Below are positions 15,999 through 50,671 of a stretch of DNA of 64,000 bases, piece by piece. The notes beneath the pieces were generated by a model. The model saw only the letters and a list, made by a program, of their open reading frames with translations, did no database searches and was not told the DNA's origin. This DNA comes from an uncultured bacterium (GTDB taxonomy: Bacteria > Bacteroidota > Bacteroidia > Sphingobacteriales > Sphingobacteriaceae). The first letter of the stretch is position 1. Every line of letters starts with the position of its first letter. The position numbers were made by a program, and so were the translations under genes. Location: contig CAMTVQ010000002.1 in the NCBI GenBank assembly GCA_947085255.1, positions 68,688 to 132,687 of the forward strand, given 5' to 3'.

Positions 15999-16361
15999 AT
16001 GCTAAATATTGGTGATAACATTAAAAAATTTCGGGAGTTAAAAGACTTAACTCGTGAACAAATGGCTGCAAACCTAAATATGAGTTTAAGTGGCTACAGC
16101 AAAATAGAGCGTGGTGAAAGCGACCTCACAATATCAAAGCTTGTACAAATATCAGAAGTACTTGGCATTAGCTTAGCTCAATTATTAAGCTTTGATGCCT
16201 CACAAATTTTTAATATTTCCAATAACCAAACCGTACAAGGCATAGGTGCCAAATCTGAACACATGTATTTCCATGGGGATGAGTACCGTGAAAAATACAT
16301 TAAGATACTTGAAGAAGAAAACAATAGACTAAAGACGCAGTTAGCTACCAAGAATAAATAA
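15999..16361 (+). CDS. XRE-family helix-turn-helix transcriptional regulator
   Basis: 120 aa. IGDNIKKFRELKDLTREQMAANLNMSLSGYSKIERGESDLTISKLVQISEVLGISLAQLL is a classic HTH_3/Cro-C1 fold. Confidence 0.8.
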   Translation: MLNIGDNIKKFRELKDLTREQMAANLNMSLSGYSKIERGESDLTISKLVQISEVLGISLAQLLSFDASQIFNISNNQTVQGIGAKSEHMYFHGDEYREKYIKILEEENNRLKTQLATKNK

Positions 16362-18545: not shown

Positions 18546-18899
18546 TTATTTATTTAGTGTTTGTTGAAAACCAAAAATCATCTTCTGAATTTCCACAGTT
18601 TGTTTATTTAAGTTCTCTAATGTTGTAGATGATACCATCTGTAAATCATTTGAAATTTGAAGCAAAGTTTGAACTTCATAAGCCGAGCCTGAAGCTATAC
18701 CTAAAAACTGCTTAAATTCTCCATTAGTATTTCTCCCCGCACCTTCGGAAATATTAGCAGCAATAGAAACAACAGCACGTCTCAACTGAGATACTAATCC
18801 ATATTGTTCCTCTTTAGGAAAATCCCTAGTAATCATATAAACCTCCTTTATTAAAGCTCTTGCTTTATGCCAAACCATTATATCTTCAATTTTTCTCAT
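18546..18899 (-). CDS. four-helix-bundle protein (23S rRNA intervening-sequence protein / Avd-like family)
   Basis: 117 aa. FPKEEQYGLVSQLRRAVVSIAANISEGAGR ... FLGIASGSAYEVQTLL is the signature of the TIGR02436/PF05635-type family. Confidence 0.85.
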   Translation of the reverse strand: MRKIEDIMVWHKARALIKEVYMITRDFPKEEQYGLVSQLRRAVVSIAANISEGAGRNTNGEFKQFLGIASGSAYEVQTLLQISNDLQMVSSTTLENLNKQTVEIQKMIFGFQQTLNK

Positions 18900-20142: not shown

Positions 20143-20184
20143 TTTAGATATTAGACAATAGACGTTAGATTTTAGACTTTAGCG
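20143..20184. repeat. tandem heptanucleotide array (6 units, core TTAGA)
   Basis: tttagat attagac aatagac gttagat tttagac tttagcg. Overlaps the 3' end of the four-helix ORF. 20153-20169 is a perfect 17-bp inverted partner of 20540-20556. Confidence 0.8.
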
Positions 20185-20524
20185 ATTCTTGTAATCCACG
20201 ATTCATCTTCTGAATTTCATCTAATTGGGTTAATAGTAAATTTAATTGGTCTTGGCTTATTAGTTTTAATTGATGTGATAGAATTAATTGTGTTTGTAAT
20301 TCGTAAGATGAGCCTTGTGCTATTCCTAAAAAATGAATAAACTCAGCAGTACCATTTCTACCTGCACCTTCTGAAATATTAGAAGTTATTGACACTGCAG
20401 CTCTTCGAATTTGACTTATCAATCCATATTTTTCTTCTTTTGGAAAATTGGCAGTAACCTCATAAACAACAACTGTTAAGTCCATTGCCTTTTGCCATAT
20501 TTTCAATTCTTTCAAATTATGCAT
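20165..20524 (-). CDS. four-helix-bundle protein (23S rRNA IVS / Avd-like family), second copy
   Basis: 119 aa. FPKEEKYGLISQIRRAAVSITSNISEGAGR ... FLGIAQGSSYELQTQL. By-eye alignment shows it is a clear paralog of 18546-18899. Confidence 0.85.
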   Translation of the reverse strand: MHNLKELKIWQKAMDLTVVVYEVTANFPKEEKYGLISQIRRAAVSITSNISEGAGRNGTAEFIHFLGIAQGSSYELQTQLILSHQLKLISQDQLNLLLTQLDEIQKMNRGLQESLKSKI

Positions 20525-31109: not shown

Positions 31110-31163
31110 GTCAAGTATATTAAAAAGGGTTGGGATGAATGCTGAACTCTTATCTTATTGCCT

Positions 31164-31217
31164 ATCCACAAAAACACAAAATCCGACTAATTAGTCGGAT
31201 TTTGTGTTTTTGTGGAT
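31164..31217. repeat. 54-bp perfect palindrome (27-bp arms, no spacer); possible terminator of the protease gene and left edge of the island
   Basis: atccacaaaaacacaaaatccgactaa / ttagtcggattttgtgtttttgtggat, read directly. Both arms are exact reverse complements. Confidence 0.9.
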
Positions 31218-31714
31218 TTAGATGGAGAGTTTTCGAAACTTCTATTTGAATTCGGGAAAGTAGTAACACAAATAAACCTCCCCTCCCTGGTTGATTCAAT
31301 CTTAATAGACCCAATACCACATTCGACCATTTAGTAAACGTGATTTATGCTATCAATTAGCTTGTTATCAAGGATAATTAGTTACTTTTATAACAGATAG
31401 CGCTAAAATCCCCAACTCTTACACACCACAAAATAGTGGTAGCGCTGGTATAAAACAAGTTTATTACCCTTTATACCTATACCAATAAAAGGCCACGACC
31501 TGTAAACTCCAAAATGGGTTGCTTAGTCGGATTACAGGCGCATTACATACGGCTGAACAACACAAAATGGCAGCTGTATCTCCCCAATAACAAAAGATGT
31601 AGTGTTTGAGCAACTGGCTATTATTGGTGCAAATTATTCTTGCCCTATTAGCTACAAAACCCATTTAAGGGTGGCAAAGCTATTCTTTTACCAATTCTTA
31701 ACGTATTAAAATCT

Positions 31715-31750
31715 GTGATTTATGTAACTATTTTACAGATTTATGTAACA
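31715..31750 (+). promoter_or_regulatory. 36-bp promoter module, copy 1 (upstream of the AraC-type regulator)
   Basis: GTGATTTATGTAACTATTTTACAGATTTATGTAACA. Hexamers at 31724 and 31744, 21... correction: exactly 20 bp by start position 31724 vs 31744 under the hexamer call, while GTGA-to-second-hexamer spacing is 29 bp as in all copies. -7-like TTTG at 31774-31777. TTG start at 31805. Confidence 0.7.
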
Positions 31751-31804
31751 TCCACCTGCTTTAAACTGGCAATTTTGAAGTACCCTATTTAAAAGAAAAT
31801 TGAT

Positions 31805-32374
31805 TTGAAACTGTACATCAAATACATGGTAAGCACACGCTGTATAATGGCAGTAAAAGCTGAATTAAAAAAGCTTGGGCTGCATTATATTCTTGTGGAT
31901 TTAGGTGAGGTAGAGATTATGGAAGACCTTTCCTTAGCACAACGGGAGGAACTATCTGCTGCTTTGCGCGAATCGCGGTTGGAATTAATGGATGATAAAC
32001 GGTCTGTGATAATTGAACGAATAAAAACGGTCATCACCGAAATGATTCACTATTTGGATGATATGCCCAAGGTGAACTACTCTGAATATCTTAGTGAAAA
32101 GCTAAACTACGATTACACCTATCTTTCCAATATATTCTCGGAGGTAAAGGGTATTACCATACAGCAATTTATCATTCTACATAAGATTGAGCGGGTAAAA
32201 GAGTTGCTGATATATGAGGAACTAAATCTTACGGAGATTTCTTACAAACTCCACTACAGCAGCGTAGCCCACTTATCCAATCAGTTTAAAAAAGTTACGG
32301 GGCTCTCTCCATCTGATTTTAGACATTTAAAAGGACACAAGCGTATGCCAATTGAAGAAATTGGCGTCCGTTAA
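31805..32374 (+). CDS. AraC/XylS-family transcriptional regulator with a short N-terminal non-HTH domain
   Basis: 189 aa, TTG start. C-terminal HTH_18 (YDYTYLSNIFSEVKGITIQQFIILHKIERVKELL...LNLTEISYKLHYSSVAHLSNQFKKVTGLSPSDFR). The N-terminus MKLYIKYMVSTRCIMAVKAELKKLGL resembles the common Bacteroidota AraC N-terminal module. Confidence 0.8.
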   Translation: MKLYIKYMVSTRCIMAVKAELKKLGLHYILVDLGEVEIMEDLSLAQREELSAALRESRLELMDDKRSVIIERIKTVITEMIHYLDDMPKVNYSEYLSEKLNYDYTYLSNIFSEVKGITIQQFIILHKIERVKELLIYEELNLTEISYKLHYSSVAHLSNQFKKVTGLSPSDFRHLKGHKRMPIEEIGVR

Positions 32375-32420: not shown

Positions 32421-34427
32421 ATGGAACTACTAAAAAGCAAAGAATCTCAATACGCCCGAAACTTAATTGAAGCGAGTTTGGATCCGTTGATTACGATTAA
32501 TACCCAAGGTAAGATTACAGATATGAATCAAGCAACCGTAAATATTACGGGCATATCACGCGAAAAATTAATTGGCACCGATTTCTTCGATTATTTTACC
32601 GAACCAGATAAAGCACAAGAAGTTTACAAGCAAGTGTTTGCTAAAGGCTTTGTGGCCGACTATCCGCTTACTATACGCGACCATAAACTGACCGATGTGC
32701 TATTTAATGGTTCGGTGTACAAAGACGAAGAAGGCAATGTAGCGGGCATAGTGGTGGTAGCAAGAGATATTACCGAACAAAAGAAGAATGAAAAAGAACT
32801 GACCGAAGCAAAAGTGTTTGCCGAATTGGCAACAGCTATTGCAGAAGAAGCAAAATGCAAAGCCGAATGTGCTATGCGTATAGCCGAAGATGCGGTAAAG
32901 GCAAAACAACAGTTTTTGTCGAATATGAGTCACGAAATTCGCACGCCAATGAATGCGATTATCGGGTTTACCAAAGTAGTACTGCGCACCGACCTTACGG
33001 CAAAACAAAAGGAATACCTTACTGCCATAAAAATGAGTGGTGATGCCTTAATTGTGCTCATTAACGATATTCTGGATTTGGCAAAAGTAGATGCCGGAAA
33101 AATGGTATTTGAACATACACCTTTCAAAATGGCATTATCCATATCGGCTATGCTGCATTTGTTTGAAACAAAAATACAGGAGAAAAACCTGCAAATGATT
33201 AAAGAATACGACAACAGGATTCCGGAAGTATTGCTTGGCGACCCTGTGCGTTTGCACCAAATTATTTTAAACTTAGTAAGCAATGCAGTAAAATTTACCA
33301 ATACCGGAAAGATTGTAGTAAAAGTGAGTTTAATGCACGAGGATGAGGATAACGTAACGATTGAGTTTGCCGTTACAGATACAGGCATTGGCATTGCAGC
33401 AGATAAACTAAAAAATGTTTTTGATGATTTTCAGCAAGCCACCAGCGGCACTTCCAGATTGTATGGCGGCACCGGATTGGGCTTGGCCATTGTAAAACAA
33501 TTAGTAGAACCACAAGGAGGAAAAATTACGGTAAAAAGTAAAATTGGTGAGGGTTCTACGTTTAGTTTCTTCCTTACTTTTCAAAAAACCATAGCACTGG
33601 CAGAGTTAGAAACCAGTATTGAGGAGTTGGATAAAGAAGTGACGAATATAAAAGTATTGGTGGTAGAAGATATTGCACTGAACCAATTACTGATGAAAAC
33701 CTTATTGGATGATTTTGGCTTTGAGCGCGACATTGCAGCAAACGGGCGCATCGCCATTGAAAAGGTAGAAAGCAAGGAATACGACATTATTTTAATGGAC
33801 TTGCAGATGCCCGAAATGAATGGATTTGAAGCCACCGAATATATTCGAAAAACGATAGGCTCCAACGTTCCGATTATTGCCTTAACTGCCGATGTAACCA
33901 CCGTTGATTTGGCAAAGTGCAAAGCCGTGGGCATGAACGATTACATTGCCAAACCCATAGACGAACGTTTGCTCTATAGCAAAATAATAGGCTTGGTAAA
34001 AAAACCAGCTATTGTTGCCCCTAAAAAAATAGTAAACGAAGCTGGTCAAAAGCTAAAATGCATTGACTTGGATTACCTAACACACCGCACCAAATCAAAC
34101 CCAGCGCTGATGATGGAAATGATTTTGTTGTATTTGGAACAAACCCCTGTTTTGATTAATAATATGAAACAAAGTTTTCAGGATAAAGATTGGCAGTCCT
34201 TATATGTAGCAGTACATAAAATGATTCCTTCTTTTGCCATAGTGGGCATTAGTCCAAGCTTTGAAACGATGGCAAAAAGGATACAGGATTTTGCCAGCAC
34301 ACAACAACAAGCCGACGAAATACCAGACTTGGTATTGCAACTGGAGAATGTATGCACACAGGCCTGCATTGAATTGGAAGAAGAATTTAACTTAATTAAA
34401 AATACAACTGATGAACAGCACAAATAA
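32421..34427 (+). CDS. PAS - HisKA - HATPase - REC - HPt hybrid sensor histidine kinase
   Basis: 668 aa. PAS (ITINTQGKITDMNQATVNITG). H-box [17 protein letters not shown]-boxes DTGIGI and GGTGLGLAI. Receiver (VLVVEDIALNQ...[12 protein letters not shown]...ALTA). C-terminal HPt-like helix bundle (AVHKMIPSF). Confidence 0.85.
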   Translation: MELLKSKESQYARNLIEASLDPLITINTQGKITDMNQATVNITGISREKLIGTDFFDYFTEPDKAQEVYKQVFAKGFVADYPLTIRDHKLTDVLFNGSVYKDEEGNVAGIVVVARDITEQKKNEKELTEAKVFAELATAIAEEAKCKAECAMRIAEDAVKAKQQFLSNMSHEIRTPMNAIIGFTKVVLRTDLTAKQKEYLTAIKMSGDALIVLINDILDLAKVDAGKMVFEHTPFKMALSISAMLHLFETKIQEKNLQMIKEYDNRIPEVLLGDPVRLHQIILNLVSNAVKFTNTGKIVVKVSLMHEDEDNVTIEFAVTDTGIGIAADKLKNVFDDFQQATSGTSRLYGGTGLGLAIVKQLVEPQGGKITVKSKIGEGSTFSFFLTFQKTIALAELETSIEELDKEVTNIKVLVVEDIALNQLLMKTLLDDFGFERDIAANGRIAIEKVESKEYDIILMDLQMPEMNGFEATEYIRKTIGSNVPIIALTADVTTVDLAKCKAVGMNDYIAKPIDERLLYSKIIGLVKKPAIVAPKKIVNEAGQKLKCIDLDYLTHRTKSNPALMMEMILLYLEQTPVLINNMKQSFQDKDWQSLYVAVHKMIPSFAIVGISPSFETMAKRIQDFASTQQQADEIPDLVLQLENVCTQACIELEEEFNLIKNTTDEQHK

Positions 34428-34848
34428 AATAGCCCTTTTTTTGGTAGATGATGATGCCGTGTTTTTAAAAACATTAGAGATTGAGCTCTTAGAACATGGC
34501 GATTTTGATATTGAAACCTTTGCCACAGGTGAGTTGTGCTTGGCACGCCTCGCATCATTCTGCCCTGATATAATCATTTTAGATTATCATTTAGATGGTA
34601 TTGAAAAAAATGCCATGAACGGCATGGATGCCTTGGATGCTATAAAGGCAATAAACTCAGAAATACCGGTAATCATGCTCTCTTCGCAAGATAAAATCGA
34701 GGTAGCTGTCAACTGTATGCATCACCGTGCTTTTGATTATGTGGTGAAAAGCGAAACTGCTTTTATGCGCGTACAAAAAATCATTACCAACGTATTTAAG
34801 TACAAAAAAATAGAGAAAGAATTAAAATGGTATATGGAGCGGATGTAA
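34411..34848 (+). CDS. single-domain response regulator (receiver only)
   Basis: 145 aa. LFLVDDD...IIILDYHL...MLSS...VVK receiver signature. Overlaps the upstream kinase gene by 17 nt. Confidence 0.8.
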   Translation: MNSTNKIALFLVDDDAVFLKTLEIELLEHGDFDIETFATGELCLARLASFCPDIIILDYHLDGIEKNAMNGMDALDAIKAINSEIPVIMLSSQDKIEVAVNCMHHRAFDYVVKSETAFMRVQKIITNVFKYKKIEKELKWYMERM

Positions 34849-34901: not shown

Positions 34902-35366
34902 ATGGATCCTGAACAATTACCTACATCGTTGAAAATTCTACTGGCTGATGACGATACTGACGATCGCTTTTTCTTTGATAAAGCAATTAATGAAATACCC
35001 ATTGCAACGCAACTTGCAACTGTAAATGATGGGGAACAGCTAATGAATTACCTTTTTGAAAACGCAGTATGCTTACCCGATATTCTTTTTCTTGACCTTA
35101 GTATGCCACGTAAAACGGGGTTTGAATGCCTAACAGAGATTAAAGAAGATGAACGGTTTAAAAATATTCCGGTGATCGTTTTTACAACCTCATTTGGCAG
35201 AGGACAAGAATACGAGCAACGATTAATAGACACTCTCCAAAATATAGGAGCACAAGAATACATTCGGAAACCAGGTGATTTAAAACAACTTAAACAAGTT
35301 ATTCTCGATCAACTTGTAAAAGCAACAGAGAAAAAAAACGCTGACCCATCAGGAGACATTCTATAA
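34902..35366 (+). CDS. single-domain response regulator (Rcp1-like receiver)
   Basis: 154 aa. ILLADDDTDDRFFF ... LFLDLSMPRKTGFECL ... VIVFTTS ... YIRKP. Confidence 0.8.
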   Translation: MDPEQLPTSLKILLADDDTDDRFFFDKAINEIPIATQLATVNDGEQLMNYLFENAVCLPDILFLDLSMPRKTGFECLTEIKEDERFKNIPVIVFTTSFGRGQEYEQRLIDTLQNIGAQEYIRKPGDLKQLKQVILDQLVKATEKKNADPSGDIL

Positions 35367-35424: not shown

Positions 35425-35868
35425 ATGAAACTAAAAGCTCTTAATATATTACTTGCAGATGACGATATTGACGATTGCGCATTTTTTCAGCAAGCGTTGG
35501 ACGAGTTATCCTTATCTGCACAGCTCACCATTGTACACGATGGAGAAAAACTGATGAAACACCTTTCAGAAAATTTAGAACACCTTCCACATGTTATTTT
35601 TCTTGATATTAATATGCCGCTCAAAAACGGTCCAGAGTGCTTATCGGAAATGAAAAAAAATACGCATTTAAAAGATATCCCCGTAGTTATGTTTTCTACC
35701 TCTAATTCTTGGGATACCATAAATACGCTATTTAAGAGTGGGGCGCATGTGTATATTCACAAACCAAGTGATTTTAAACAATTGAAACAGGTGATTCATC
35801 ATGCATTGCCGATAGCGGCAGAAAAAATATTTTCGAACGGACCCGTAAAGTATGTTCTTAACGCATAA
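35425..35868 (+). CDS. single-domain response regulator (Rcp1-like receiver)
   Basis: 147 aa. ILLADDDIDDCAFF ... IFLDINMPLKNGPECL ... VVMFSTS ... YIHKP. Confidence 0.8.
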   Translation: MKLKALNILLADDDIDDCAFFQQALDELSLSAQLTIVHDGEKLMKHLSENLEHLPHVIFLDINMPLKNGPECLSEMKKNTHLKDIPVVMFSTSNSWDTINTLFKSGAHVYIHKPSDFKQLKQVIHHALPIAAEKIFSNGPVKYVLNA

Positions 35869-35894: not shown

Positions 35895-36395
35895 ATGAAT
35901 TTAGACCAAATGAATATTCTGCTTGCAGATGACGATACGGATGATTGTGTTTTTTTTAAAGAGGCTGTAGAAGAAGTACTACCAGCTACTAACCTTACTG
36001 CCGTGCATGATGGTGAACAATTAATGCGATTTCTTGCAAATGAGGGCAATAAACTTCCTGATGTACTTTTTTTAGACTTGAATATGCCACGTAAAAACGG
36101 TTTTGAGTGTTTGTCGGAAATAAAGCTAAATCACAAATTAAAGCAACTTCCGGTAATTATGTTCTCTACTTCTTATGAACAAGAAGTGGTAAACCAACTT
36201 TACCAAAATGGTGCCCAATACTTTATTCGTAAGCCTTCTGAATTTTCGCAATTCAAAAAAATTATTCAACATACCCTTTTGCAACTACAGCAAGAACTAT
36301 CTGCACCAATAAGTATGCTACAGGGCAGCGAAGCGGAGCATATTTTACAACCAACCAGAGAAGATTTTGTACTCTCTGTGCAAAGTAACAATTAG
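35895..36395 (+). CDS. single-domain response regulator (Rcp1-like receiver)
   Basis: 166 aa. ILLADDDTDDCVFF ... LFLDLNMPRKNGFECL ... VIMFSTS ... FIRKP. Confidence 0.8.
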   Translation: MNLDQMNILLADDDTDDCVFFKEAVEEVLPATNLTAVHDGEQLMRFLANEGNKLPDVLFLDLNMPRKNGFECLSEIKLNHKLKQLPVIMFSTSYEQEVVNQLYQNGAQYFIRKPSEFSQFKKIIQHTLLQLQQELSAPISMLQGSEAEHILQPTREDFVLSVQSNN

Positions 36396-36406: not shown

Positions 36407-37723
36407 ATGATAGAACTAACGAAAGCGGACGAACTAACTATTGCTAGTAAGGAACTTGCTTTTCAGAACGATGAGAAAGAAAAACGGGCCGCCGAATTAC
36501 TAATTGCCAACAAAGAGCTTGCTTTTCAGAACGATGAGAAAGAAAAACGGGCCGCCGAATTACTAATTGCCAACAAAGAGCTTGCTTTTCAGAATGATGA
36601 GAAAGAAAAGCGCGCAGCCGAATTGTTAATTGCCAACAAAGAATTGGCTTTCCAAAACGATGAGAAAGAAAAACGTGCAGCAGAACTAACCATTGCTAAC
36701 AAAGAGCTTGCTTTCCAAAACGATGAGAAAGAAAAGCGCGCAGCCGAGCTGATAATTGCTAACAAAGAATTGGCTTTCCAGAACGACGAGAAAGAAAAGC
36801 GTGCAGCCGAACTGATTATTGCCAACAAAGAATTGGCTTTCCAGAATGATGAGAAAGAAAAGCGCGCAGCAGAACTAATTATTGCCAACAATGAACTAGC
36901 TTTCCAAAACGATGAGAAAGAAAAGCGCGCAGCAGAACTAATTATTGCCAACAAAGAACTTGCTTTCCAGAACGATGAGAAAGAAAAGCGTGCAGAAGAG
37001 CTGATTATTGCCAATAAAGAACTGCTTGCATTTACGTACATATCCAGTCATGATTTGCAAGAACCCTTGCGAAAAATACAAACCTTTGTTACGATTATAC
37101 TCGAAAACGAAAACAAGAATTTATCTGAAAAAGGTAAGTATCATTTCGAGCGCATGCAAGTGGCCGCAGGACGAATGCAGCAACTTATTGATGATTTACT
37201 GGCCTTTTCTCGCATTGCCACAACGGAGCTCAAGTTTGAAAAAACGGATCTCAATTTAATTGTAGAAGAAGTAAAAACAGAGCTTAGAGAAACCATTCAG
37301 GAAAAAAATGGTACTATAGAGGCCATAGAACTGGGTTCTGCCAATATCATTGCTTTTCAGTTTAGGCAATTGATGTACAATCTTATCAGCAATGCGCTCA
37401 AGTTTTCGAACCCTAATTTACCATCACATATTACCATAACAAGCAGTATTATAAAAGGCAGTAAACTAAACAACGAACGGCTTTCTGCCGGCAAAAACTA
37501 TTGCCACATTACTGTAAAAGACAATGGCATAGGCTTTGAGCCCCGCTTTAGTGAACGCATTTTTGGTGTATTCCAAAAGCTGCACGGCAAAGAAGTATAT
37601 GCCGGAACAGGTATTGGACTTGCCATTGTAAAAAAGATAGTAGAAAACCACAACGGCATTATTGCTGCCGCCAGTGAATTAAATAAGGGGGCAACTTTTA
37701 ATATTTATATCCCTGCTAACTAA
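36407..37723 (+). CDS. soluble histidine kinase whose whole N-terminal region is a tandem 21-aa coiled-coil repeat, joined directly to HisKA-HATPase
   Basis: 438 aa. No TM segment and no PAS/GAF domain. 9 full copies plus 1 partial copy of L(L/I/T)IANKELAFQNDEKEKRAAE. Then H-box FTYISSHDLQEPLRKI, N-box LISNALKF, and G-boxes DNGIGF and GTGIGLAI. Confidence 0.85.
   Translation: MIELTKADELTIASKELAFQNDEKEKRAAELLIANKELAFQNDEKEKRAAELLIANKELAFQNDEKEKRAAELLIANKELAFQNDEKEKRAAELTIANKELAFQNDEKEKRAAELIIANKELAFQNDEKEKRAAELIIANKELAFQNDEKEKRAAELIIANNELAFQNDEKEKRAAELIIANKELAFQNDEKEKRAEELIIANKELLAFTYISSHDLQEPLRKIQTFVTIILENENKNLSEKGKYHFERMQVAAGRMQQLIDDLLAFSRIATTELKFEKTDLNLIVEEVKTELRETIQEKNGTIEAIELGSANIIAFQFRQLMYNLISNALKFSNPNLPSHITITSSIIKGSKLNNERLSAGKNYCHITVKDNGIGFEPRFSERIFGVFQKLHGKEVYAGTGIGLAIVKKIVENHNGIIAAASELNKGATFNIYIPAN
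36434..37024 (+). repeat. 63-bp in-frame tandem repeat, about 9.4 copies (coding)
   Basis: Each unit encodes 21 aa (three heptads). The first copies are DNA-identical. Later copies differ mostly at synonymous positions (for example gcttttcagaac versus gctttccaaaac; aaacgggccgcc versus aagcgcgcagca). Confidence 0.9.
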
Positions 37724-37844: not shown

Positions 37845-40800
37845 ATGAAATTACTCACCCCCGCCTTACAAAAAAAAGTAGTTCTGCAAGAAAAGACCCC
37901 TGAACATTCATTTCCGATAGTTGCTATTGGTGCTTCGGCAGGAGGCTTGGAAGCCGTGAGCGAATTATTGAGAAATTTGCCGGCTAATACAGGCATGGCC
38001 TATATTTACGTACAACACTTAAGCCCCGATCATAAAAGTTTTCTCACTCCTATCTTATCTAAGGTTACTAAGATGAAAGTGCAGGAAATTGAAAATATGG
38101 AGCACATGGCTCCGAACAACGTATATGTAATTCCACACAATAAGGGAATAGAGGTTATTGATGGGCAGATTCAGTTAATTCCTCGCCTTAAAATCAGTAC
38201 TGGAAGTCTTACCATTGATGTTCTTTTTTCCTCGTTGGCAGAAACTCATAAAGAAAATGTAATAGGCATCGTTCTTTCTGGCTATGCCAGTGATGGCGCA
38301 ATTGGACTTAAAACAATTAAAGCTGCCGGAGGATTAACCTTTGCGCAGGACGACTCCGCTCAGGCAAGCAGTATGCCCGAATCGGCCATAGCCGTAGGGG
38401 CTGTCGATTTTGTGATGTCGCCAAAAAAAATAGCGCAGGAATTAGTAAAAATTAGCAAAAATGGCTTTCTGCGGACTATTATTAAGCTCCGACAAAATAA
38501 GAATACCCTTGAGGAGAATAATTTCAACCTGAAAACAATTTTTGAGCTCTTGCATAAGCAAACCGGTGTTGATTTTAGTCATTACAAAATGAGCACCATT
38601 AAGCGGCGCTTAAGGCACAGAATGCTTCAAACAGATATACATACTGTAGAAGAATTTACGGAGCACTTGCTTAAAAATACTGCTGAGGTAGATTTGCTTT
38701 ACAAAGATTTGCTAATACATGTAAGTAGTTTTTTTAGGGAGACCGAAACCTTTAAGTATTTGCAAACAGCTTTTTTGCCCAAACTTATTGCCAGCAAGCA
38801 CGCCGACGAAACACTACGGATATGGGTAACTGCCTGTTCTAGTGGAGAAGAAGCCTACTCTATTGCTATGCTCATTAGCGAAATTCAGAGCCATAACAAA
38901 ACAAAAATACCTGTACAAATTTTTGCTACCGACCTTAGCGAAGAAGCCATTCGTATTGCACGTATTGGTGAGTATACGCAAAAGGATGTTAGTGTAATTG
39001 CTAAAAAGAGAGTAAGTACCTTTTTTACAAAAACGGGTGATACGTACCGCATTGCTAAAGAAATTAGAGAGATGTGTATATTTGCACCTCATAATGTTTT
39101 GAGCGATCCTCCCTTTGCGCGGATTGATTTTATTAGCTGTTGCAACCTGCTCATTTACTTTGATATGCCTGCGCAAAAAAGAGCACTAGCAACCTTTAAT
39201 TTTGCGTTGAATGATGGGGGCTATTTGATGTTGGGCAAATCTGAAACCATAGGAGCAGCCTCTCCCTTTTTTACTCGAATAGATACTAAATTCAAGGTTT
39301 ATTCACGAAAAAAAAATACAGGCATTCGAAAAGTACCCGACCTGTTGCCGCGCATTCCCAGAACCGCTATTCCTGAAAAAAGCACAAAACCTGTTTTAAT
39401 GAAAAGTACAGCTATTAATTCGGCAGAGTTAGACAAGTCTATAGATGCTATTCTGCTTACGAATTACATGCCCGCCTGTGCAATCATCAATAAGGATATG
39501 GAAATCCTTCAGTTTAGGGGCTCCACCTCTGTATTTCTAGAGCATGCTTCGGGCAGGGCAAGTCTTAATATTTTGAAGATGATAAAGCCAGAGTTTGCTT
39601 TTGAACTTAGAAGTGTGATACACAAAGCACTAAAAAGCAAAACAACGGTACGCAAATCGGATATTGAGATGAAGATTGGTGCCAATTATAAAATGATTTC
39701 GTTGGAGGTATGCCCTCTTAAAATTGATTGGGATGAACCACTGCTGCTTATCGTTTTTACGATACAAGAACAGGTTGAAAAATATATTGGGGTTGGCAAA
39801 GATAAAAGGTTAGTCATTGGAACAAAAGAGCAAGAGCAAAAAATAAAAAGGCTGAGTGAAGAATTAGCTCTTGCACGTGCCGAAATGCATACGATTATCG
39901 AATCGCAGGAAATAGCTTATGAGGAACTGCAGGCAGCTAATGAAGAAATAACCTCTACCAACGAAGAGTTTCAGACCTTGAATGAAGAACTTGAAACCTC
40001 TAAGGAAGAAATTGAGGCTACCAACGAAGAGCTTATTTGTACCAACCATGAGTTGCAAATACGCAATGATCTTTTGACGGAGTCGTACAGATACTCGGAA
40101 GCTATTATAGCTACTATTCATGAACCAATGATTGTTCTTGACAGTAATCTTCATGTAAAATCTGCCAACAAATCGTTTTACAAAAAATTTCGCACTACTA
40201 AAGAGGATACCGAAGGAGTGCTCGTGTTTGAATTAGGAAACAAGCAATGGGATATTCGTCAGCTACATCTATTGCTCGAAAATATTGTTTCGAAAAATAG
40301 TGATTTTAATAGTTTTGAGGTAACGCATACATTTCCGGGTATAGGCGAAAAAATAATGTTGCTTAACGCACACCGTATTGTTCAAAAGATTCATCATGAG
40401 CATTTAATTCTTCTTGCTTTTGAAGACATTACAGAACGTGCCAACTATTACCTCAATGAAAAGGCCATTCTTAGCCGCGAAAAGCAAATAGCAGAAATGG
40501 CGGTTCATTCCAAACAACAGTTTTTGTCGAACATGAGCCACGAAATTCGCACGCCTATGAATGCGATTATTGGCTTTACCAAAGTGGTTTTAAAAACAGA
40601 TTTAACTGAAAAACAAAAGGAATACGTAAATGCCATTAAAGTATCGTGTGATGACTTAATCGTTTTGATAAATGACATACTTGATCTTGCCAAGGTAGAC
40701 GCCGGCAAGATGACTTTTGAGCAATCTAAATTTGCAGTACTGCCATCCATTACGGCTATACTCCATTTGTTTGAAACAAAAATTCAAGAAAAAAGCTTAG

Positions 40801-42017
40801 AATTAATTACAGTATACGACACTACTATTCCTAAAGTAGTACTTGGCGACGCTGTACGACTAAACCAGATTATTCTGAATTTAGTTAGTAATGCCATTAA
40901 ATTTACCGAAAAGGGAAAAATTACTGTAAGTGTGCGTAAGATAGCCGAGGATGAGGAAGGCACAACTATTGAATTTGCAGTGAAAGATACTGGAATTGGA
41001 ATACCAGCAGATAAGCTACCCAGTATTTTTCAAAAATTCCAACAGGCATCCAGCAGTACTGCACGATTATATGGAGGTACAGGATTGGGGCTTGCCATTG
41101 CTAAACAATTAGTGGAAGCACAGGGCGGAACAATTAAGGTTGAAAGCGAAAACAATATAGGATCTACGTTTACTTTTACACTTGCTTTTCAAAAAACAAC
41201 GGAGGAAATAGGCATTGAAACCGAAGATGTTGCATCAGGATCTGAATTTAAACACCTAAAAGTATTGGTGGTTGAAGATATTCAGCTCAACCAGTTGCTG
41301 ATGAAAACCATATTAGATGATTTTGGATTTGAAGGTGACATTGCTGCCAACGGAAAAATAGCCATAGAGCTGCTGAAACATAAATCGTACGATGTTATTT
41401 TGATGGATTTGCAAATGCCCGAAATGGATGGGTTTGAAGCCACAGAATATATTCGAAAAACGCTAGGTTCCACCGTTCCGATTATTGCCTTAACTGCAGA
41501 TGTAACCACGGTTGATTTAGCAAAATGCAAAGCCGTGGGCATGAACGACTATTTGGCAAAACCTGTAGACGAGCGTTTGCTATACAGAAAGATAGTTGGT
41601 TTGGTAAAAAAAACAACGACTGCACGAGGCAATAAGACTAAAAATAAAGCAGTTAAAAAACAAAAAACGGATACCTACACTAATTTGGATTACTTAGTGC
41701 AGCGTACCAAATCAAACCCAGCATTATTGGCCGAAATTATTTCTCTTTACTTGAAGCAAAATCCGCTCTTAATTGCTGCACTTAAACAAAGCTTGGTGAA
41801 TAAAGATTGGCATGCCATGCACATGGCGGCACATAAAATGATTCCCTCCTTTTCAATAATGGGTTTTAGCAACAACTTTGAAGATGCCGCCAAAAAAATT
41901 CAGGAGTATGCAAGTGCCAAAGAGCATCTGGATAAAATACCTGATTTAGTGGCGCAGTTGGATAAAGTTTGCACAGATGCCTATATAGAATTAGAAGACG
42001 CACTTACTAAACTATAA
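37845..42017 (+). CDS. CheB methylesterase - CheR methyltransferase - coiled coil - PAS - HisKA - HATPase - REC - HPt fusion protein
   Basis: 1390 aa. CheB-like ([15 protein letters not shown]...YVQHLSPDH). CheR SAM motif ([18 protein letters not shown]). EE-heptad coiled coil. PAS. The kinase/REC/HPt part is a close paralog of 32421-34427 ([24 protein letters not shown] identical). Confidence 0.85.
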
Positions 42018-42051: not shown

Positions 42052-42085
42052 TACCCATTATGCTTTGCGTAGTGGGTATTTTTTT
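42052..42085 (+). terminator. rho-independent terminator after the kinase operon
   Basis: TACCCATTA (42052-42060) pairs with TAGTGGGTA (42070-42078), followed by a T7 run at 42079-42085. Confidence 0.65.
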
Positions 42086-42095
42086 GTGATGTTCT

Positions 42096-42131
42096 GTGAT
42101 TTATGTAACTAATTTCCATTAGTGTGTAACA
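42096..42131 (+). promoter_or_regulatory. 36-bp promoter module, copy 2
   Basis: GTGATTTATGTAACTAATTTCCATTAGTGTGTAACA. -7-like ccTTTG at 42156-42159. ATG at 42194, 63 nt after the module end. Confidence 0.7.
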
Positions 42132-42193
42132 CCTGCACACCCAAAGGTCGCCACCTTTGAGCATTACAACTCAATCAAAAAAAAACACAGGTT

Positions 42194-42637
42194 ATGAAAA
42201 TATTATTAGCTATAGATGGTTCTGCGCATAGTATGGCCGCTGTTCAAGAAATTGCATGCAGGCCGTTTCCGCCTAAAACAGAAGTGCGCATTCTTGCTGT
42301 GTACGAAATTGCACCATTTATTATGCAAACAGAATTAGCAAGCATATCTCAAGAATACTATGCCGAAGCTGATAAGTATGCGCTAAAAGCAGCCACAACT
42401 ATTGCCGAAAAGGCAGCTCATGAATTACACACAAAAAATCCTGCACTCACAGTTAGTACTACGGTGGTAGAAGGCGCTCCAAAGAGTGTTATTTTAAAAG
42501 AAGCCGAAACTTTTGGTGCTAATTTGATTGTGGTGGGTTCTCATGGATATGGGGCTATAGAGCGTTTTTTGCTTGGCTCTGTTTCTCAATCGGTGGCATT
42601 ACATGCAAAATGTTCGGTAGAAATAGTACGCAAATAA
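42194..42637 (+). CDS. universal stress protein (UspA family)
   Basis: 147 aa. KILLAIDGS ... LIVVGSHGYGAIERFLLGSVSQSVALHAKCSVEIVR is the canonical Usp ATP-binding motif. Confidence 0.85.
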   Translation: MKILLAIDGSAHSMAAVQEIACRPFPPKTEVRILAVYEIAPFIMQTELASISQEYYAEADKYALKAATTIAEKAAHELHTKNPALTVSTTVVEGAPKSVILKEAETFGANLIVVGSHGYGAIERFLLGSVSQSVALHAKCSVEIVRK

Positions 42638-42671: not shown

Positions 42672-43415
42672 ATGAAATTACAACACAACACCCTAACAGC
42701 CTTTGCTTTGGTAACATTGCTTTTGGTAACCGCTTGTACAGAAGACAACAATAACCCAGGAGGTAATCCTATTGTAATTCCTCTTCAAACTACGGTACAT
42801 GCTATCGTTCCACTTGGAGGCACTATCAACTTTGCAGTACTTGCTGGTTCAGCTGTTACCAATACAGGTGCAACCGTAATTACTGGCGATTTAGGACTTA
42901 GCCCTGGCACTTCGGTAGGCGGATTTCCTCCCGGCATACTCAATGGCACACAACACATTAACGATACCATTGCCACCCAAGCAAAACAGGATTTAACTAC
43001 CGCCTATAACGATGCAGCAGGAAGAACAGCTACAGATATCGTTACCCTATCGGGCAATATCGGTGGACTTACACTTACCCCAGGGCTGTATAAATCTACC
43101 TCCTCATTGTCTATCTCTTCGGGTGATGTTACGTTTGATGCAAAAGGAAATGCAAATGCTGTGTTTATTATACAAATAGCTTCTGCTTTTACCACCACAT
43201 CTGGTCGTAAAGTTATTCTTAGTGGAGGTGCGCAGGCATCCAATATTTTTTGGCAGGTAGGCAGTTCGGCAACTTTTGGTACTACCTCTGTACTTAAAGG
43301 AACAATAATGGCTATGCAGTCGATTACGTTTAATACTGGAGCAACGCTTGATGGCAAAGCACTAACTAGAACAAGCGCCGTTACCCTATCGGGCAATACC
43401 ATTGTAAAGCAGTAA
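42672..43415 (+). CDS. ice-binding-like (DUF3494) family lipoprotein, single domain
   Basis: 247 aa. Lipobox LLVTAC. FAVLAGSAVTNTGATVITGDLGLSPG ... LTPGLYKSTSSLSISSGDVTFDAKGNANAVFIIQI ... IFWQVGSSATFGTTSVLKGTIMA ... LDGKALTRTSAVTLSGNTI is the DUF3494 beta-solenoid signature. Confidence 0.8.
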   Translation: MKLQHNTLTAFALVTLLLVTACTEDNNNPGGNPIVIPLQTTVHAIVPLGGTINFAVLAGSAVTNTGATVITGDLGLSPGTSVGGFPPGILNGTQHINDTIATQAKQDLTTAYNDAAGRTATDIVTLSGNIGGLTLTPGLYKSTSSLSISSGDVTFDAKGNANAVFIIQIASAFTTTSGRKVILSGGAQASNIFWQVGSSATFGTTSVLKGTIMAMQSITFNTGATLDGKALTRTSAVTLSGNTIVKQ

Positions 43416-43428: not shown

Positions 43429-45183
43429 ATGAGCACTAAAAAAACAGAACTACCTGTGGCGGAAACTGCCCCTAAATGGGCAAAATTCCGTTCGGATATG
43501 CTTAAGTCATTTCCATCTCCGTATAAAGGCGAAAAGGATTCTTTGGCAGATGCCATAGATAAAGCCATACGCCAGTTGGATAAACTAAAATCTGAAAAAA
43601 CAGGAGGTGCTGCGTATTTAGGAACCAACTCTGCTCTTACTATTGATTTCGAAAATGTAAAAGATTCTGCTCTATTACCACAAATGAGCACCTCGGCTGC
43701 GGTAATAGAGCAAGTAATCGAGTTATTTGAAGGATTGCCTAACTGGGGACATCCGCTTACCATGTGCAACGTAAGTCCGCAAGGAAATACAGCAGCAGTA
43801 GTTGCCGCCATTTTATCCGAAATATTTGCCCCCAATATTTTGGAAGGCGAGTATGCCTGGAATATTCACAAAGCAGAATTAGAATCAGCCGGAATATTAG
43901 CAAATCTTGCTGGCTGGGAGCCTAAAAAAGCAGGAGCAATTTATACCTATGGCGGTTCGGGCTGCTGGACCTACCACTTAAAATATGCCCTTACGCGCGT
44001 GCTGCCAAATTCGCGGAATACAGGCGTACGCACAGATGCAAAAGTAATTTGTTCGCAACAAGCGCATTATACCATGCTCAACAGTACCGATTGGACCGGG
44101 TTAGGAATGGATAATATTATCCGTATCCGCACAGATATGGATACCAATGCCATGGACATGAAACATCTGGAAGACGTATTGAAAGATTGTAGAGATAAGA
44201 AAATTCCTGTTGCTTCTGTGGTGTGCACGATGGCTACTACCGATGCAAATGCATTTGATCCCGTAAAAGAAGTACGCCAGCTAATAGACAAATACCCCAA
44301 CCCCAATGGCTATGGAAAAACCTTATTGTATTGCGATTCGGTAATTGGCTGGTCGTGGATCGCTTTCAAAAACTACGACTTCAAGGCCAATCCACTTGGT
44401 TTTTCTGAAGCAGTGCTTCCGTATATCGAACAAAACTATACGGCAATAAAAGACATTTTTTATGCCGATGCTTTTGGGGTAGATTTTCATAAAACAGGCT
44501 TTTCTCCGTACATCAGCAGTGCTTTTGTGTACAAAGATGCCGCCGAGTTTGAGGGTTTACTTACACGCGAAGGGCCTGCCTATTTGCAACCCCGCTCCCC
44601 TTACAACCCAATGGATTATACCTTAGAGGTTTCGCGCGCAGCAACAGGTTCTTTGGCTGGATGGGCTACCCTTAAATTTTTTGGTCACGAAGGTTTTCAG
44701 GCTGTGTTAGGCGGCATATTGGAGAACAAAGTGTACCTCAAAAATCAGATTGCCAAAAGAAGCGATATGGTTTGTGTAAACCCATCCGACTATGGATTGG
44801 TAACCCTCTTAAGAATCTATCCTACGGGAGTACATGCACAAACACAATTTGATGGTGAGTTAAGCGACCCTACTTACCGCAAGGCCTTAATTACCCACAA
44901 CAAACTAACTCATAGTATTGGTGATACCCTATTTAACTGGTTCCGTTCGGGCAAAAAGATACAGGGTAAATGCACTCCGTATCTTAGTTTCAGCACGGGT
45001 TTTCGTACCGCAGAATACAACCGAGATATGAAAGATGGAGAAGCACTTATTTACGCCCTTAAAATATTTCCGATGAACGTACACATTACTCCCGAAGTAA
45101 TGGATCATGTATTAGACTGTATCAGTGCCGCCAGAGATGAAGTAATGGCACTGGAAGAAAGCAAATACGTGGAGAGTTTTTAA
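43429..45183 (+). CDS. PLP-dependent group II decarboxylase-like enzyme (fold-type I)
   Basis: 584 aa. TMATTDANAFDP, LYCDSVIGWSW and DFHKTGFSPY (candidate PLP lysine) resemble the TLGTT..G..D / H.DAA / N.HK motifs of group II decarboxylases. Substrate unknown. Confidence 0.55.
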   Translation: MSTKKTELPVAETAPKWAKFRSDMLKSFPSPYKGEKDSLADAIDKAIRQLDKLKSEKTGGAAYLGTNSALTIDFENVKDSALLPQMSTSAAVIEQVIELFEGLPNWGHPLTMCNVSPQGNTAAVVAAILSEIFAPNILEGEYAWNIHKAELESAGILANLAGWEPKKAGAIYTYGGSGCWTYHLKYALTRVLPNSRNTGVRTDAKVICSQQAHYTMLNSTDWTGLGMDNIIRIRTDMDTNAMDMKHLEDVLKDCRDKKIPVASVVCTMATTDANAFDPVKEVRQLIDKYPNPNGYGKTLLYCDSVIGWSWIAFKNYDFKANPLGFSEAVLPYIEQNYTAIKDIFYADAFGVDFHKTGFSPYISSAFVYKDAAEFEGLLTREGPAYLQPRSPYNPMDYTLEVSRAATGSLAGWATLKFFGHEGFQAVLGGILENKVYLKNQIAKRSDMVCVNPSDYGLVTLLRIYPTGVHAQTQFDGELSDPTYRKALITHNKLTHSIGDTLFNWFRSGKKIQGKCTPYLSFSTGFRTAEYNRDMKDGEALIYALKIFPMNVHITPEVMDHVLDCISAARDEVMALEESKYVESF

Positions 45184-45204: not shown

Positions 45205-46026
45205 TTAAATCTTTTTTTGTTGTTTTGGTGGTAAAAAATTTTCTCCTGTTACTACTTTTTTTCCTGTTTGCACCTCCAATTGCACCCTTGCATCTTTGGC
45301 AATTTTGCCTCCTTTTTTGCTTGCTTTTGCATTTTCAAGTAACCCTTTAGCGTCATCTGTTTGGGCTATTTGTCGTGTTGATAGTTCAGCTAAGGCAGTA
45401 AAAATCAATTCGGCTTCGCTCATGTGGTCACGCAGGTTTTGCGATTTTAAGCCCTTCAAATCTTTGTGTTTTTTTACCGATAAGCCTGTCCATTCCTGAT
45501 GAATAATATTTGTAAGCAATGCAAATTCATCCGCTTTTTCTACACCGCTCTCTTTCCAGTAATCCGTGAGTTTGTTTCGGGTTTCTTGCCCTGTCATTCG
45601 TTGCTGAATCCATTTTTCGCTACGTCCTAGTTTTTGCCAGTTTTCTCTGGCTCTATCTATACTTTGGCTAGGGTCGGCTATTTCTTGCATACGTTCGTAG
45701 CCCACTTTGGCTAGCCATTGTTTAAAAGGTTCTGCTTTGGGTGATGGTATGGATTGGATAAGCCTAAAAATATCTTGCGCATTGCCAGCCAAAGTTTTAC
45801 GCTTCTTTCCGTTTGATAACATTTCTACCTGGGGACAATTTGTCCCTAGGTAAGCGCCGAGTTCAGTGTCTCTTTTTCTGAGTTTTTTTAAATAATCAGT
45901 TGGATTAATCGATTCTGTAAGGGCTTCTACAATATCTACAACAGAAAAATACCAAATATCTTTTTCTGCGTCGTAATACCTACGTACTTGCCTGTTTTCA
46001 AATAAAATAATGTTTTGATTACTCAT
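45205..46026 (-). CDS. BRO-N domain / DNA-damage-inducible protein D (DinD)-like protein
   Basis: 273 aa. FENRQVRRYYDAEKDIWYFSVVDIVEAL ... FRLIQSIPSPKAEPFKQWLAKVGYERMQEI is the typical DinD/Bro pattern. It is the only minus-strand gene in the island. Confidence 0.75.
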   Translation of the reverse strand: MSNQNIILFENRQVRRYYDAEKDIWYFSVVDIVEALTESINPTDYLKKLRKRDTELGAYLGTNCPQVEMLSNGKKRKTLAGNAQDIFRLIQSIPSPKAEPFKQWLAKVGYERMQEIADPSQSIDRARENWQKLGRSEKWIQQRMTGQETRNKLTDYWKESGVEKADEFALLTNIIHQEWTGLSVKKHKDLKGLKSQNLRDHMSEAELIFTALAELSTRQIAQTDDAKGLLENAKASKKGGKIAKDARVQLEVQTGKKVVTGENFLPPKQQKKI

Positions 46027-46378: not shown

Positions 46379-46414
46379 GTGATTTGTATAACTCTTTTAC
46401 AGAGTTATGTAATG
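46379..46414 (+). promoter_or_regulatory. 36-bp promoter module, copy 3
   Basis: GTGATTTGTATAACTCTTTTACAGAGTTATGTAATG. -7-like ccTTTG at 46439-46442. The ATG at 46477 is 63 nt after the module end. The ORF-track start at 46384 lies inside the module and is rejected. Confidence 0.7.
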
Positions 46415-46476
46415 TTCAAGCCCCCCAAGCAACTGACCTTTGTGACGTAGCCATGCTACACGAATTTAGCTCCACA

Positions 46477-48763: not shown

Positions 48764-48799
48764 GTGAATTATGTAACTATTTCCGGAAGATGTGTAAAG
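48764..48799 (+). promoter_or_regulatory. 36-bp promoter module, copy 4 (starts 1 nt after the stop codon of 48233-48763)
   Basis: GTGAATTATGTAACTATTTCCGGAAGATGTGTAAAG. -7-like tcTTTG at 48823-48826. ATG at 48862, 63 nt after the module end. Confidence 0.7.
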
Positions 48800-48861
48800 C
48801 GGCAGCATACGAAGCAAGCATCTTTGTGGGGTGAAGATTCATTCACCCTAATTACAATAAA

Positions 48862-50505: not shown

Positions 50506-50540
50506 AAAAGCCCCCTTGCTTTAGGCGAGGGGGCTTTTTT
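50506..50540 (+). terminator. rho-independent terminator
   Basis: AAAAGCCCCCT (50506-50516) pairs with AGGGGGCTTTT (50528-50538). T-run to 50540. Confidence 0.8.
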
Positions 50541-50548
50541 ATGAATGT

Positions 50549-50584
50549 GTGAATAATGCAAGTAATTATCAAAGTTGTGTAACA
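50549..50584 (+). promoter_or_regulatory. 36-bp promoter module, copy 5
   Basis: GTGAATAATGCAAGTAATTATCAAAGTTGTGTAACA. TAccTTTA -7-like box at 50605-50612. Confidence 0.65.
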
Positions 50585-50671
50585 GCTACCACAATATATG
50601 AGGGTACCTTTACAAGGCATTATACCTTTTAAATTAACTCCTGATATTTTGGGATTCAACTATTGACTACC

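Follow-up and report, generated by a model that had tools for sequence, protein, structure and literature searches.

We analysed a stretch of 64,000 nucleotides (nt) from an uncultured bacterium of the Sphingobacteriaceae in the phylum Bacteroidota (GenBank assembly GCA_947085255.1, contig CAMTVQ010000002.1, positions 68,688 to 132,687), which is called the window below, and in particular a repeated promoter element, here called the module, together with a gene for an AraC/XylS-family protein (31805-32374, plus strand), here called the regulator. The first copy of the module occupies positions 31711-31749 on the plus strand and consists of a distal half-site, AATcTGTGATTTATGTAAC, and a proximal half-site, AGATTTATGTAAC, arranged as a direct repeat at 21 nt. 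Its core at 31715-31749, GTGATTTATGTAACTATTTTACAGATTTATGTAAC, scores 44 bits on the refined matrix described below, and within it GATTTATGTAAC is present twice with a period of exactly 21 nt (31717-31749). A search with the 33-nt double-repeat pattern, allowing up to 3 mismatches, returned a single match, which was the exact one at module 1, against an expectation of 0 from 100 shuffles. A Bacteroidota-type −7 box, CAATTTTG, follows at 31770-31777, and the AraC-family open reading frame (ORF) starts 90 nt after the module start (31715 to 31805). Both the exact repeat match and the Pfam match given below agree with a first-pass annotation of this DNA, which had placed the first module copy ahead of an AraC/XylS-family gene.

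The window holds eight modules, all on the plus strand and each just upstream of genes, with starts at 31715, 42096, 46379, 48764, 50549, 52079, 57208, and 57578. A matrix built from the window's own copies gave eight sites of at least 30 bits, compared with a background maximum of 9.1 bits. The refined matrix recovered the same eight sites at 30 to 53 bits, and the next position on either strand of the window reached only −4 bits, so that the ninth module counted in the first-pass annotation was not found. The shared pattern is GTGAwTnATGTAAC-N15-TGTAAC, followed after about 21 nt by a Bacteroidota −7 box. At every module in the window, an nAnnTTTG box lies 20 to 22 nt after the proximal TGTAAC; the housekeeping −7 consensus of Bacteroidota is TAnnTTTG. 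None of these promoters has a −33 TTG at the usual distance, and the proximal half-site fills that place. The geometry described earlier, with direct repeats at 21 nt and the proximal one over the −35/−33 region, therefore holds, with a repeat of 11 nt that ends 20 to 22 nt before the −7 box. An Rfam scan gave no match at the modules, indicating that they are not a described RNA motif.

The regulator is 189 amino acids (aa) long when read from a TTG start at 31805. Alignment backs this start, since 44 homologs begin with MK[LI]YIKYMVS and several of them use TTG as well. The protein belongs to the AraC family by its Pfam scores, which are 64.6 bits for HTH_18 (cut-off 33.6) and 54 bits for HTH_AraC (cut-off 26.6), and, as the first-pass annotation had stated, the Pfam scan found no receiver domain in it. 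The AlphaFold2 model (mean predicted local distance difference test score, pLDDT, 86.8) shows a beta-alpha-beta-beta-alpha-beta domain in residues 1-62 and a seven-helix AraC domain in residues 64-176. Strands of the N-terminal domain span residues 2-6, 28-32, 35-38, and 60-61, and its helices residues 11-23 and 44-56, with pLDDT of about 90; the domain is thus about 62 aa long instead of the roughly 90 aa given before. Foldseek searches against the PDB matched the C-terminal domain to AraT, YesN, MarA, AdpA, and SoxS (E values 1e-5 to 3e-4), and the N-terminal domain to the copper chaperone-type folds Atox1, Atx1, and CopZ (template modelling score, normalised to the target, 0.59-0.69; probability 0.98-1.0). 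By sequence, the solved structures closest to the DNA-binding domain come from response regulators with receiver and AraC domains (REC-AraC; YesN, AraT) and a Bacteroides hybrid two-component protein (6swi, 6.6e-8; 3lsg, 6.5e-7; 12aw, 3e-5).

The N-terminal domain thus has the fold of the HMA family (PF00403) in both the model and the Foldseek comparison, whereas the GMxCxxC loop of that family is not preserved, being M8-V-S10-x-R-C13 in the window protein and in 45 of 45 aligned homologs. An SxxC motif takes the place of CxxC; the first cysteine has become an invariant serine, and Cys13, His27, and His82 are invariant. Pfam HMA gave no match to this domain even at E values up to 10. An N-terminal cupin/AraC_binding domain is typical of AraC/XylS proteins, though not defining, and is absent from MarA and SoxS. 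No such effector domain was detected in the regulator, nor any Pfam match within residues 1-95. Taken together, the sequence and the model indicate a protein in which an HMA-like N-terminal domain is fused to an AraC DNA-binding domain.

More than 8000 homologs of the regulator are present in databases. The best 120 of these are 73-80% identical to it and come from Cytophagales, Chitinophagales, Flavobacteriales, Bacteroidales, and Saprospiraceae; the nearest is from a metagenome-assembled genome of the Cyclobacteriaceae (80% identity). Conservation among the homologs spans both domains, and in a search of 1.84 billion representative proteins the N-terminal domain was almost confined to AraC proteins of about 186 aa. 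One further domain architecture that matched in that search proved to be a low-complexity artefact. No Pfam or NCBIfam model describes the N-terminal domain or the regulator family, and no NCBIfam model reached its cut-off for the regulator, or for the kinases and receivers encoded behind it. A full-text literature search found no description of the regulator family, the module, or the copper branch presented below. Judged by its sequence, the regulator belongs to a phylum-wide Bacteroidota family for which we found no earlier description.

Whether the module accompanies the regulator gene elsewhere was determined in 80 genomic loci fetched via close regulator homologs, comprising 1.2 Mb with 100 regulator copies. 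With a threshold of at least 14 bits and a matrix built from the window only, 187 modules were found, compared with 0 in the same sequences reversed, and 68 of the 80 loci held at least one. A module adjoins 56 of the 100 regulator copies. In 32 of them it lies upstream, and in 25 of these its distance from the MVS codon is 101-115 nt, compared with 111 nt in the window. In another 24 it coincides with the stop codon or follows it closely; in 17 copies the stop codon TGA itself forms module positions 2-4. At about one module per 5 kb, the expectation for either arrangement is far below one copy per hundred. Module density is highest in the 2 kb upstream of the regulator gene and remains high downstream, and 85 of 95 counted modules lie on the strand of that gene. 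When the gene immediately behind each of 125 modules was classified, the AraC family came first (23), ahead of ice-binding-like proteins (13), CsbD (10), and then OmpA (6) and outer-membrane barrels, with YtxH, BON, and Usp after these.

The module consensus from these loci is AAtgTGTGAATnATGTAACTtwTt...a.AaTTgTGTAACac.T. Its 11-nt direct repeat, AATnRTGTAAC, stands at positions 4-14 and again at 25-35, and the distal end carries an additional GTGA/TGTGAA block. The distal site has about 19 conserved positions, and the distal repeat is the most conserved part of the element. Conservation extends into flanks that lie outside the matrix, with A at position −3 in 93% and T at position 0 in 87% of the modules, and cAcCTTTG at positions 57-64; the −7 box, which is likewise outside the search matrix, is conserved in 159 modules. 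This conservation outside the matrix is independent evidence of homology among the sites as promoter elements.

The search for competing regulators covered the window ORFs of at least 100 aa and two shorter ORFs behind modules by Pfam scans, one of which reported the best 25 of 34 families. Within this scope (ORFs of at least 100 aa), the regulator gene is the sole DNA-binding gene in the module cluster. The two other DNA-binding genes detected in the window, a MerR/B12-binding gene (1980-2879) and an XRE gene (15999-16361), both lie at least 15 kb from the cluster with no module nearby, which upholds the earlier naming of the AraC-type protein as the best activator candidate in the window. 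No LytTR domain was found in the window ORFs of at least 100 aa (among the best 25 of 34 families in the one scan), in agreement with the earlier statement that the window has no LytTR gene, and none was found among the 30 most conserved neighbour clusters of the 80 homolog loci. The window Pfam scans likewise revealed no sigma or anti-sigma gene, and none was evident in the conserved-neighbour clusters, four of which were scanned with Pfam. In a cluster survey of 1145 ORFs from the homolog loci, no DNA-binding family other than the AraC family was conserved. The 600-nt gap at 31110-31714 ahead of module 1 was searched for the degraded remains of another AraC copy; none was found, and the gap has no similarity to the other loci.

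The regulator copies fall into two types according to their C-terminal tails. Type 1 carries ..PIEEIGN.. at the C-terminus and stands ahead of a kinase and a receiver; the window protein, with ..PIEEIGVR, belongs to it. Type 2 ends in ..NLEN[M/L/V]-stop, with the stop codon within a module, and the genes behind it are either small stress genes or a type-1 copy. No fixed difference between the two types was found outside the C-terminal tail, the recognition helices included, and with identical DNA-binding domains both types should read the same DNA. Type 2 is common in other genomes, and there is no type-2 copy in the 64-kb window. The overlap between the type-2 stop codon and the module keeps the register AAT-nTG-TGA, which is fixed across distant taxa; an example lies at 10535-10540 of locus L039, and further cases are found in loci L001, L002, L008, L022, L028, L037, L038, L056, L059, L060, L062, L066, L072, L074 (twice), and L080.

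A distant paralog at locus L051 has only 31% identity to the window protein but an intact MVCERC loop. Its gene lies before one for a CopA-type ATPase and is itself preceded, at the same distance, by a module-like repeat. Together with eight further loci (L093-L100), L051 makes up a copper set with 17 intergenic regions. The cassettes (2631-6178 in L051; 2845-6436 in L096, for example) consist of one or two genes for HMA(CxxC)-AraC proteins, which retain the CxxC motif, and then copA. Two such genes stand in tandem in 8 of the 9 loci, and a single copy precedes copA in L095. The sister proteins are 31-52% identical to the window protein and keep an MVC[ED]RC loop; with Pfam HMA they reach 13-14 bits, short of the cut-off of 24.8. 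The copper cassettes contain neither a kinase nor a receiver nor any further regulator; the HMA-AraC proteins are the sole local candidates for binding there.

All 17 intergenic regions contain a module of the same architecture (35 nt with a 21-nt repeat, about 21 nt, and a TTTG box), and the upstream stop codon abuts it. The copper module has the consensus.AAAATTATATAAa......aATtgTATAAcA, and variant modules, ..AAAATTATATAA..N..TTGTATAAC, stand ahead of the second regulator and of copA. The letters differ from those of the stress-type modules described so far, with AA for TG at positions 2-3 and A for G at positions 10 and 31. T at position 2 was found in none of the 17 copper modules versus 154 of 159 stress modules, G at position 3 in none versus 152, G at position 10 in none versus 129, and G at position 31 in 4 versus 130, although these statistics are inflated by shared ancestry and by the gathering of the stress set with a matrix that favours these bases. 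The G-to-A change is common to both half-sites, as it should be if two copies of a single DNA-binding domain recognise them. The two subfamilies differ at several positions of their recognition helices as well (YTYLSNlFSEVkG versus YhYLtTLFSSVEG, and SSVAHLSNQFKK versus SSVQHLSqQFKK). We infer from the copper cassette the strongest computational evidence that the HMA-AraC family binds modules. The cassette itself has the look of a Bacteroidota system for copper regulation that has so far gone undescribed; HMA-AraC regulators are not mentioned in a survey from 2024 that covered the copper homeostasis of one flavobacterium (PMC11213822).

Module 1 heads an operon of about 10 kb on the plus strand that comprises the regulator, kinases, and four single-domain receivers, with all genes downstream of the regulator on the same strand and separated by short gaps. 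The conserved partners of the regulator are a soluble hybrid kinase (PAS-HisKA-HATPase-REC with a weak Hpt match; 32421-34427) and a single-domain receiver of 145 aa (34411-34848). They are followed by three more receiver-only proteins (34902-35366, 35425-35868, and 35895-36395), a second histidine kinase (36407-37723), and a CheB-CheR-PAS-kinase-REC protein (37845-42017). The Pfam scan thereby bears out the kinases and four output-less receivers that had been noticed behind the regulator at first sight. Across the 80 loci, the hybrid kinase follows the regulator in 59 (about 71% identity; homolog lengths 633-1530 aa) and the 145-aa receiver in 54 (about 69% identity). The three additional receivers have homologs next to the regulator in 2 to 4 of the 80 loci, and the last two genes are accessory members of the operon, CheBR-kinases being present in 13 loci. 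The 145-aa receiver keeps the acidic pocket at D13-15, the acceptor D58, S92, and K113, and ends in a conserved C-terminal helix (..WYM). In one metagenomic protein of 620 aa, P0184, a single ORF encodes PAS-HisKA-HATPase together with both regulator domains, HMA-like and AraC; this is either a natural fusion of the regulator with the kinase beside it or an artefact of frameshift or assembly. The conserved synteny, the kinship to REC-AraC proteins, and this one fusion suggest a response regulator that has been split into a receiver and an output protein. It is plausible, but still tentative, that the phosphorylated receiver sets the activity of the regulator by direct contact, as the first-pass annotation had proposed.

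The best available reading of these results, and in our estimation a probable one, is that the regulator binds the modules and activates transcription from them. Two copies of the regulator would bind the direct repeat AATnRTGTAAC at its 21-nt period, with the distal copy also reading the extra GTGA/TGTGAA element one helical turn upstream. The proximal copy, placed at the −33 position and 20-22 nt from the −7 box, would recruit RNA polymerase to otherwise defective sigma-A promoters in a class II-type manner. If the regulator does activate, module 1 in front of its own operon would provide positive feedback, and the seven other modules would serve to activate stress-type genes. On the input side, synteny points to a route in which the hybrid kinase would phosphorylate the 145-aa receiver through a His-Asp-His relay, and the receiver would act on the regulator, probably via the HMA-like domain. 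The regulator family may descend from, or share an ancestor with, the HMA(CxxC)-AraC regulators of copA, having lost the first metal-binding cysteine. From its sequence context, the regulator is the most likely switch for the stress-protection gene cluster in the window.

Other readings of the modules can be weighed against the same data. A LytTR-type response regulator encoded outside the window, which the first-pass annotation had named as the main alternative, would account for the 21-nt periodicity, because AgrA, ComE, and PlnC bind 9-bp repeats with 12-bp spacers; modules stand before an operon with kinases, and on the bottom strand GTTACA contains the GTT core of many LytTR sites. Yet the distal site with about 19 conserved positions and the repeat core of 11 nt exceed a 9-bp repeat, no LytTR gene was found among the window ORFs of at least 100 aa or among the conserved neighbours of the 80 loci, modules of this architecture occur in the copper cassette with no genes but copA and those for HMA-AraC proteins, and the stop-codon overlap with AraC genes would be left without explanation. 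We regard such a binder as very improbable. It is just as hard to believe that the module is a promoter for an alternative sigma factor, for example of the extracytoplasmic function (ECF) type, with TGTAAC as its −35 element and no activator. GTAAC-like −35 elements are indeed common in ECF promoters, and other phyla drive their stress regulons with alternative sigma factors. The spacer from TGTAAC to the box, however, is 20-22 nt and not 16-17 nt, the nAnnTTTG box is the housekeeping −7 element of Bacteroidota, and conservation is greatest in the distal repeat, another 21 nt upstream and beyond what a sigma factor would read; moreover, no sigma or anti-sigma gene was seen in the window scans or was evident among the conserved neighbours. 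The regulator could also bind the modules as a repressor that occludes the −33 region until stress relieves it, as the proximal half-site overlaps that position and some AraC-family members repress. This we consider improbable, since promoters without a −33 TTG at the usual distance should be weak unaided, so strict a spacing to the −7 box typically reflects contact between an activator and polymerase, and regulator and kinase genes under a module suit positive feedback.

Activation by the regulator overlaps with a further possibility, in which a type-2 paralog encoded elsewhere in the genome is the main binder of the modules, and the window gene is a target and an amplifier instead of the primary activator. 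Type-2 genes usually have no upstream module, sit directly before modules, and directly precede a type-1 gene in 7 loci; the copper branch has the same layout of a first and a second regulator gene in which only the second gene and copA carry modules; and no fixed difference separates the two types outside the tail. We are nevertheless doubtful of it as the main account: the 64-kb window has no type-2 copy, about 20 of the 80 loci have a type-1 gene with an upstream module and no second copy in the locus DNA covered, and identical DNA-binding domains predict the same sites for both types. Several points do weigh against binding and activation by the window protein, in addition to the inflated copper statistics. 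A type-2 paralog, if encoded outside the window, could be the main binder in this genome, and the autoregulation could in part be regulation by a paralog. Twelve of the 80 loci have no module, and 44 of the 100 homolog copies have none adjacent. The loci were fetched via the regulator, which partly builds in the co-occurrence of gene and module. A metagenome motif scan made with a 20-nt spacing, and thus off-register, gave only six loci; canonical modules were present in them, along with a CsbD gene, an ice-binding gene, and, in just one locus, an AraC homolog. A scan of viral contigs with the correct module pattern gave five matches and no related proteins. In the model, the N-terminal domain runs straight into the first DNA-binding helix, so a symmetric dimer of N-terminal domains would be hard to fit on a head-to-tail direct repeat. 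The contact between receiver and regulator is argued from synteny and from one fusion that may be an artefact, and, more generally, we infer each step that leads from adjacency to binding and activation.

The genes behind the modules in the window are a stress-type set. The module-1 operon is closed by a strong intrinsic terminator (42052-42088, also delimited as 42052-42078) that directly adjoins module 2, and all features given here are on the plus strand. Module 2 and its −7 box at 42152-42159 (together 42096-42159) precede genes for a Usp protein (42194-42637), an ice-binding-like protein (42672-43415), and a pyridoxal phosphate decarboxylase-like protein (43429-45183). Module 3 with its −7 box (46379-46442) is followed by a collagen-repeat protein (probable start 46477, end 48207) and a CHU_C protein (48233-48763), and module 4 with its box (48764-48826) by an ice-binding-like protein of the type IX secretion system (T9SS) class (48862-50487). 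Behind module 5 and its box (50549-50612) lie a gene for a bestrophin-like channel (50663-51502) and a 160-aa ORF (51522-52004). Module 6 and its box (52079-52142) head the longest series, with CsbD (52179-52367), a 146-aa ORF, catalase (53136-54611), other ORFs, and PPK2 (56429-57196). Module 7, which has a weak −7 box (57208-57272), precedes a His-rich ORF of 65 aa (57314-57511), and module 8 with its box (57578-57641) precedes a 1087-aa ice-binding-like T9SS protein (57677-60940), a PorP/SprF protein (60983-61924), and an OmpA-family protein (61944-63899). Ice-binding-like surface proteins thus stand behind three modules, with T9SS sorting domains.

Some details of this cluster were noted in passing. 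The listed plus-strand ORF at 46384-48207 begins within module 3; the real start is probably the ATG at 46477, which yields a signal peptide and a protein with collagen triple-helix repeats. The 65-aa His-rich ORF (57314-57511), the sole gene under module 7, consists of repeated HxEAAKxH units and has no Pfam match. A Bro-N domain gene (45205-46026) is the sole minus-strand gene within the otherwise co-directional module cluster and may be a remnant of a mobile element.

Intrinsic terminators abut modules 2 (42052-42095), 5 (about 50509-50548), 6 (about 52027-52078), and 8 (about 57527-57577); three of the four have long loops and were identified by eye. At modules 5 and 8 the T-run of the terminator passes into ATG(A/G)AATGTGTGAAT, and at module 6 a few more bases come before AATATGTGAAT. 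Terminator and module form a compact insulating unit at modules 5, 6, and 8, and the presence of four modules directly after intrinsic terminators indicates that the modules behave as separate promoters. The modules occur in two flavours at positions 5-6, being GTGATT or GTGATA in those starting at 31715, 42096, 46379, and 57208, and GTGAAT in those at 48764, 50549, 52079, and 57578. T at position 5, present in 18% of all modules, rises to about half among modules that immediately precede a regulator gene, and the two flavours may be affinity classes. Matches to the sigma-70-type −35/−10 consensus between 31000 and 64000 were fewer than in shuffled sequence (39 versus 51.5 and 23 versus 35.1), a deficit that fits a Bacteroidota genome with −33/−7 promoters.

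Comparison with known systems places the regulator between several of them. It shares the two-helix-turn-helix DNA-binding domain with AraC at araI1-I2 and with XylS at Pm, and these proteins bind direct-repeat half-sites with a 21-nt period, the proximal one over the −35/−33 region, as in the modules. The precedents offered in the first-pass annotation stand for AraC I1-I2 and XylS, which are direct repeats, and fall for RhaS, whose half-sites are inverted repeats. The regulator differs from AraC and XylS in its 62-aa HMA-like domain in place of a cupin, its Bacteroidota −33/−7 promoters, its stress-type regulon, and the location of its gene beside a phosphorelay. With MarA, SoxS, and Rob it has in common a small size, a dispersed stress regulon, and a site before its own operon. 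Its DNA-binding domain superposes on those of MarA and SoxS, and the two conserved blocks of the distal site, spaced at about 9-10 nt, recall a marbox that a single monomer reads. MarA and SoxS, however, act as monomers on one asymmetric 20-bp site and have no N-terminal domain, whereas two repeated sites and an extra domain are present here. The REC-AraC and Bacteroides hybrid two-component proteins put an AraC output under phosphotransfer; here, by contrast, the receiver is a separate 145-aa protein, the HMA-like domain stands in the place of REC, and the coupling is suggested by gene order. The copper HMA(CxxC)-AraC proteins share the two-domain architecture, the tandem layout, the stop-abutting module, the 35-nt geometry, and the −7 spacing, and differ in the intact CxxC, a Cu-type P-type ATPase as the effector gene, a cassette without kinase or receiver, and other module letters. 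LytTR systems such as AgrA, ComE, and PlnC resemble the present one in having 21-nt direct repeats upstream of an autoregulated operon that contains kinases, but the module site is longer. In gene content (CsbD, Usp, catalase, YtxH, BON, OmpA-like), in its presumed kinase and receiver input, and in its presumed positive feedback, the system is similar to SigB, RpoS, and EcfG-NepR-PhyR; those general stress responses use an alternative sigma factor, while the output here would be an activator at housekeeping-type promoters.

Bacteroidota, in which the coordination of general stress protection has been little described, are a dominant phylum in soil, water, and guts. On the basis of the above, we put forward, as a speculative possibility on which we would not yet rely, that Bacteroidota, having no RpoS, SigB, or EcfG-type sigma factor, run a phylum-wide regulon of the general-stress type via degenerate-HMA-AraC activators from copper-sensing ancestors, which would form the DNA-binding half of a split response regulator fed from hybrid kinase through Hpt and single-domain receiver, and would switch on sigma-A promoters in which the 35-nt module replaces the −33 element, with regulator genes and target promoters so tightly fused that the stop codon lies inside the binding site. 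The module motif allows the regulon to be read from any genome, and the regulator, hybrid kinase, and single-domain receiver make up a conserved signalling core of three genes. TGTAAC in the stress branch and TATAAC in the copper branch form a natural specificity-swap pair. If the proposal is true, the HMA-like domain would be a new type of effector domain in the AraC family, and the system may be an example of a single-domain receiver that controls a transcription factor. The module also offers a ready-made stress-inducible promoter part for Bacteroidota genetics.

Elsewhere in the window, the MerR and B12-binding gene at 1980-2879 (plus strand), which is CarH/LitR-like, and a DNA photolyase gene (8035-9339, plus strand) lie a few kb apart without modules and are probably a light-response unit. 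A tRNA is encoded at 3077-3163 on the minus strand. An Rfam DUF805 RNA motif at 11165-11229 (minus strand) scored 59 bits, above its gathering score of 51; it falls in the 5′ region of a gene for a DUF1761 protein (10717-11316), the listed TTG start of which is probably too far upstream. Two paralogous genes of the 23S-rRNA-intervening-sequence/bAvd-like type (18546-18899 and 20165-20524, both on the minus strand) are interleaved with genes for fatty-acid beta-oxidation.

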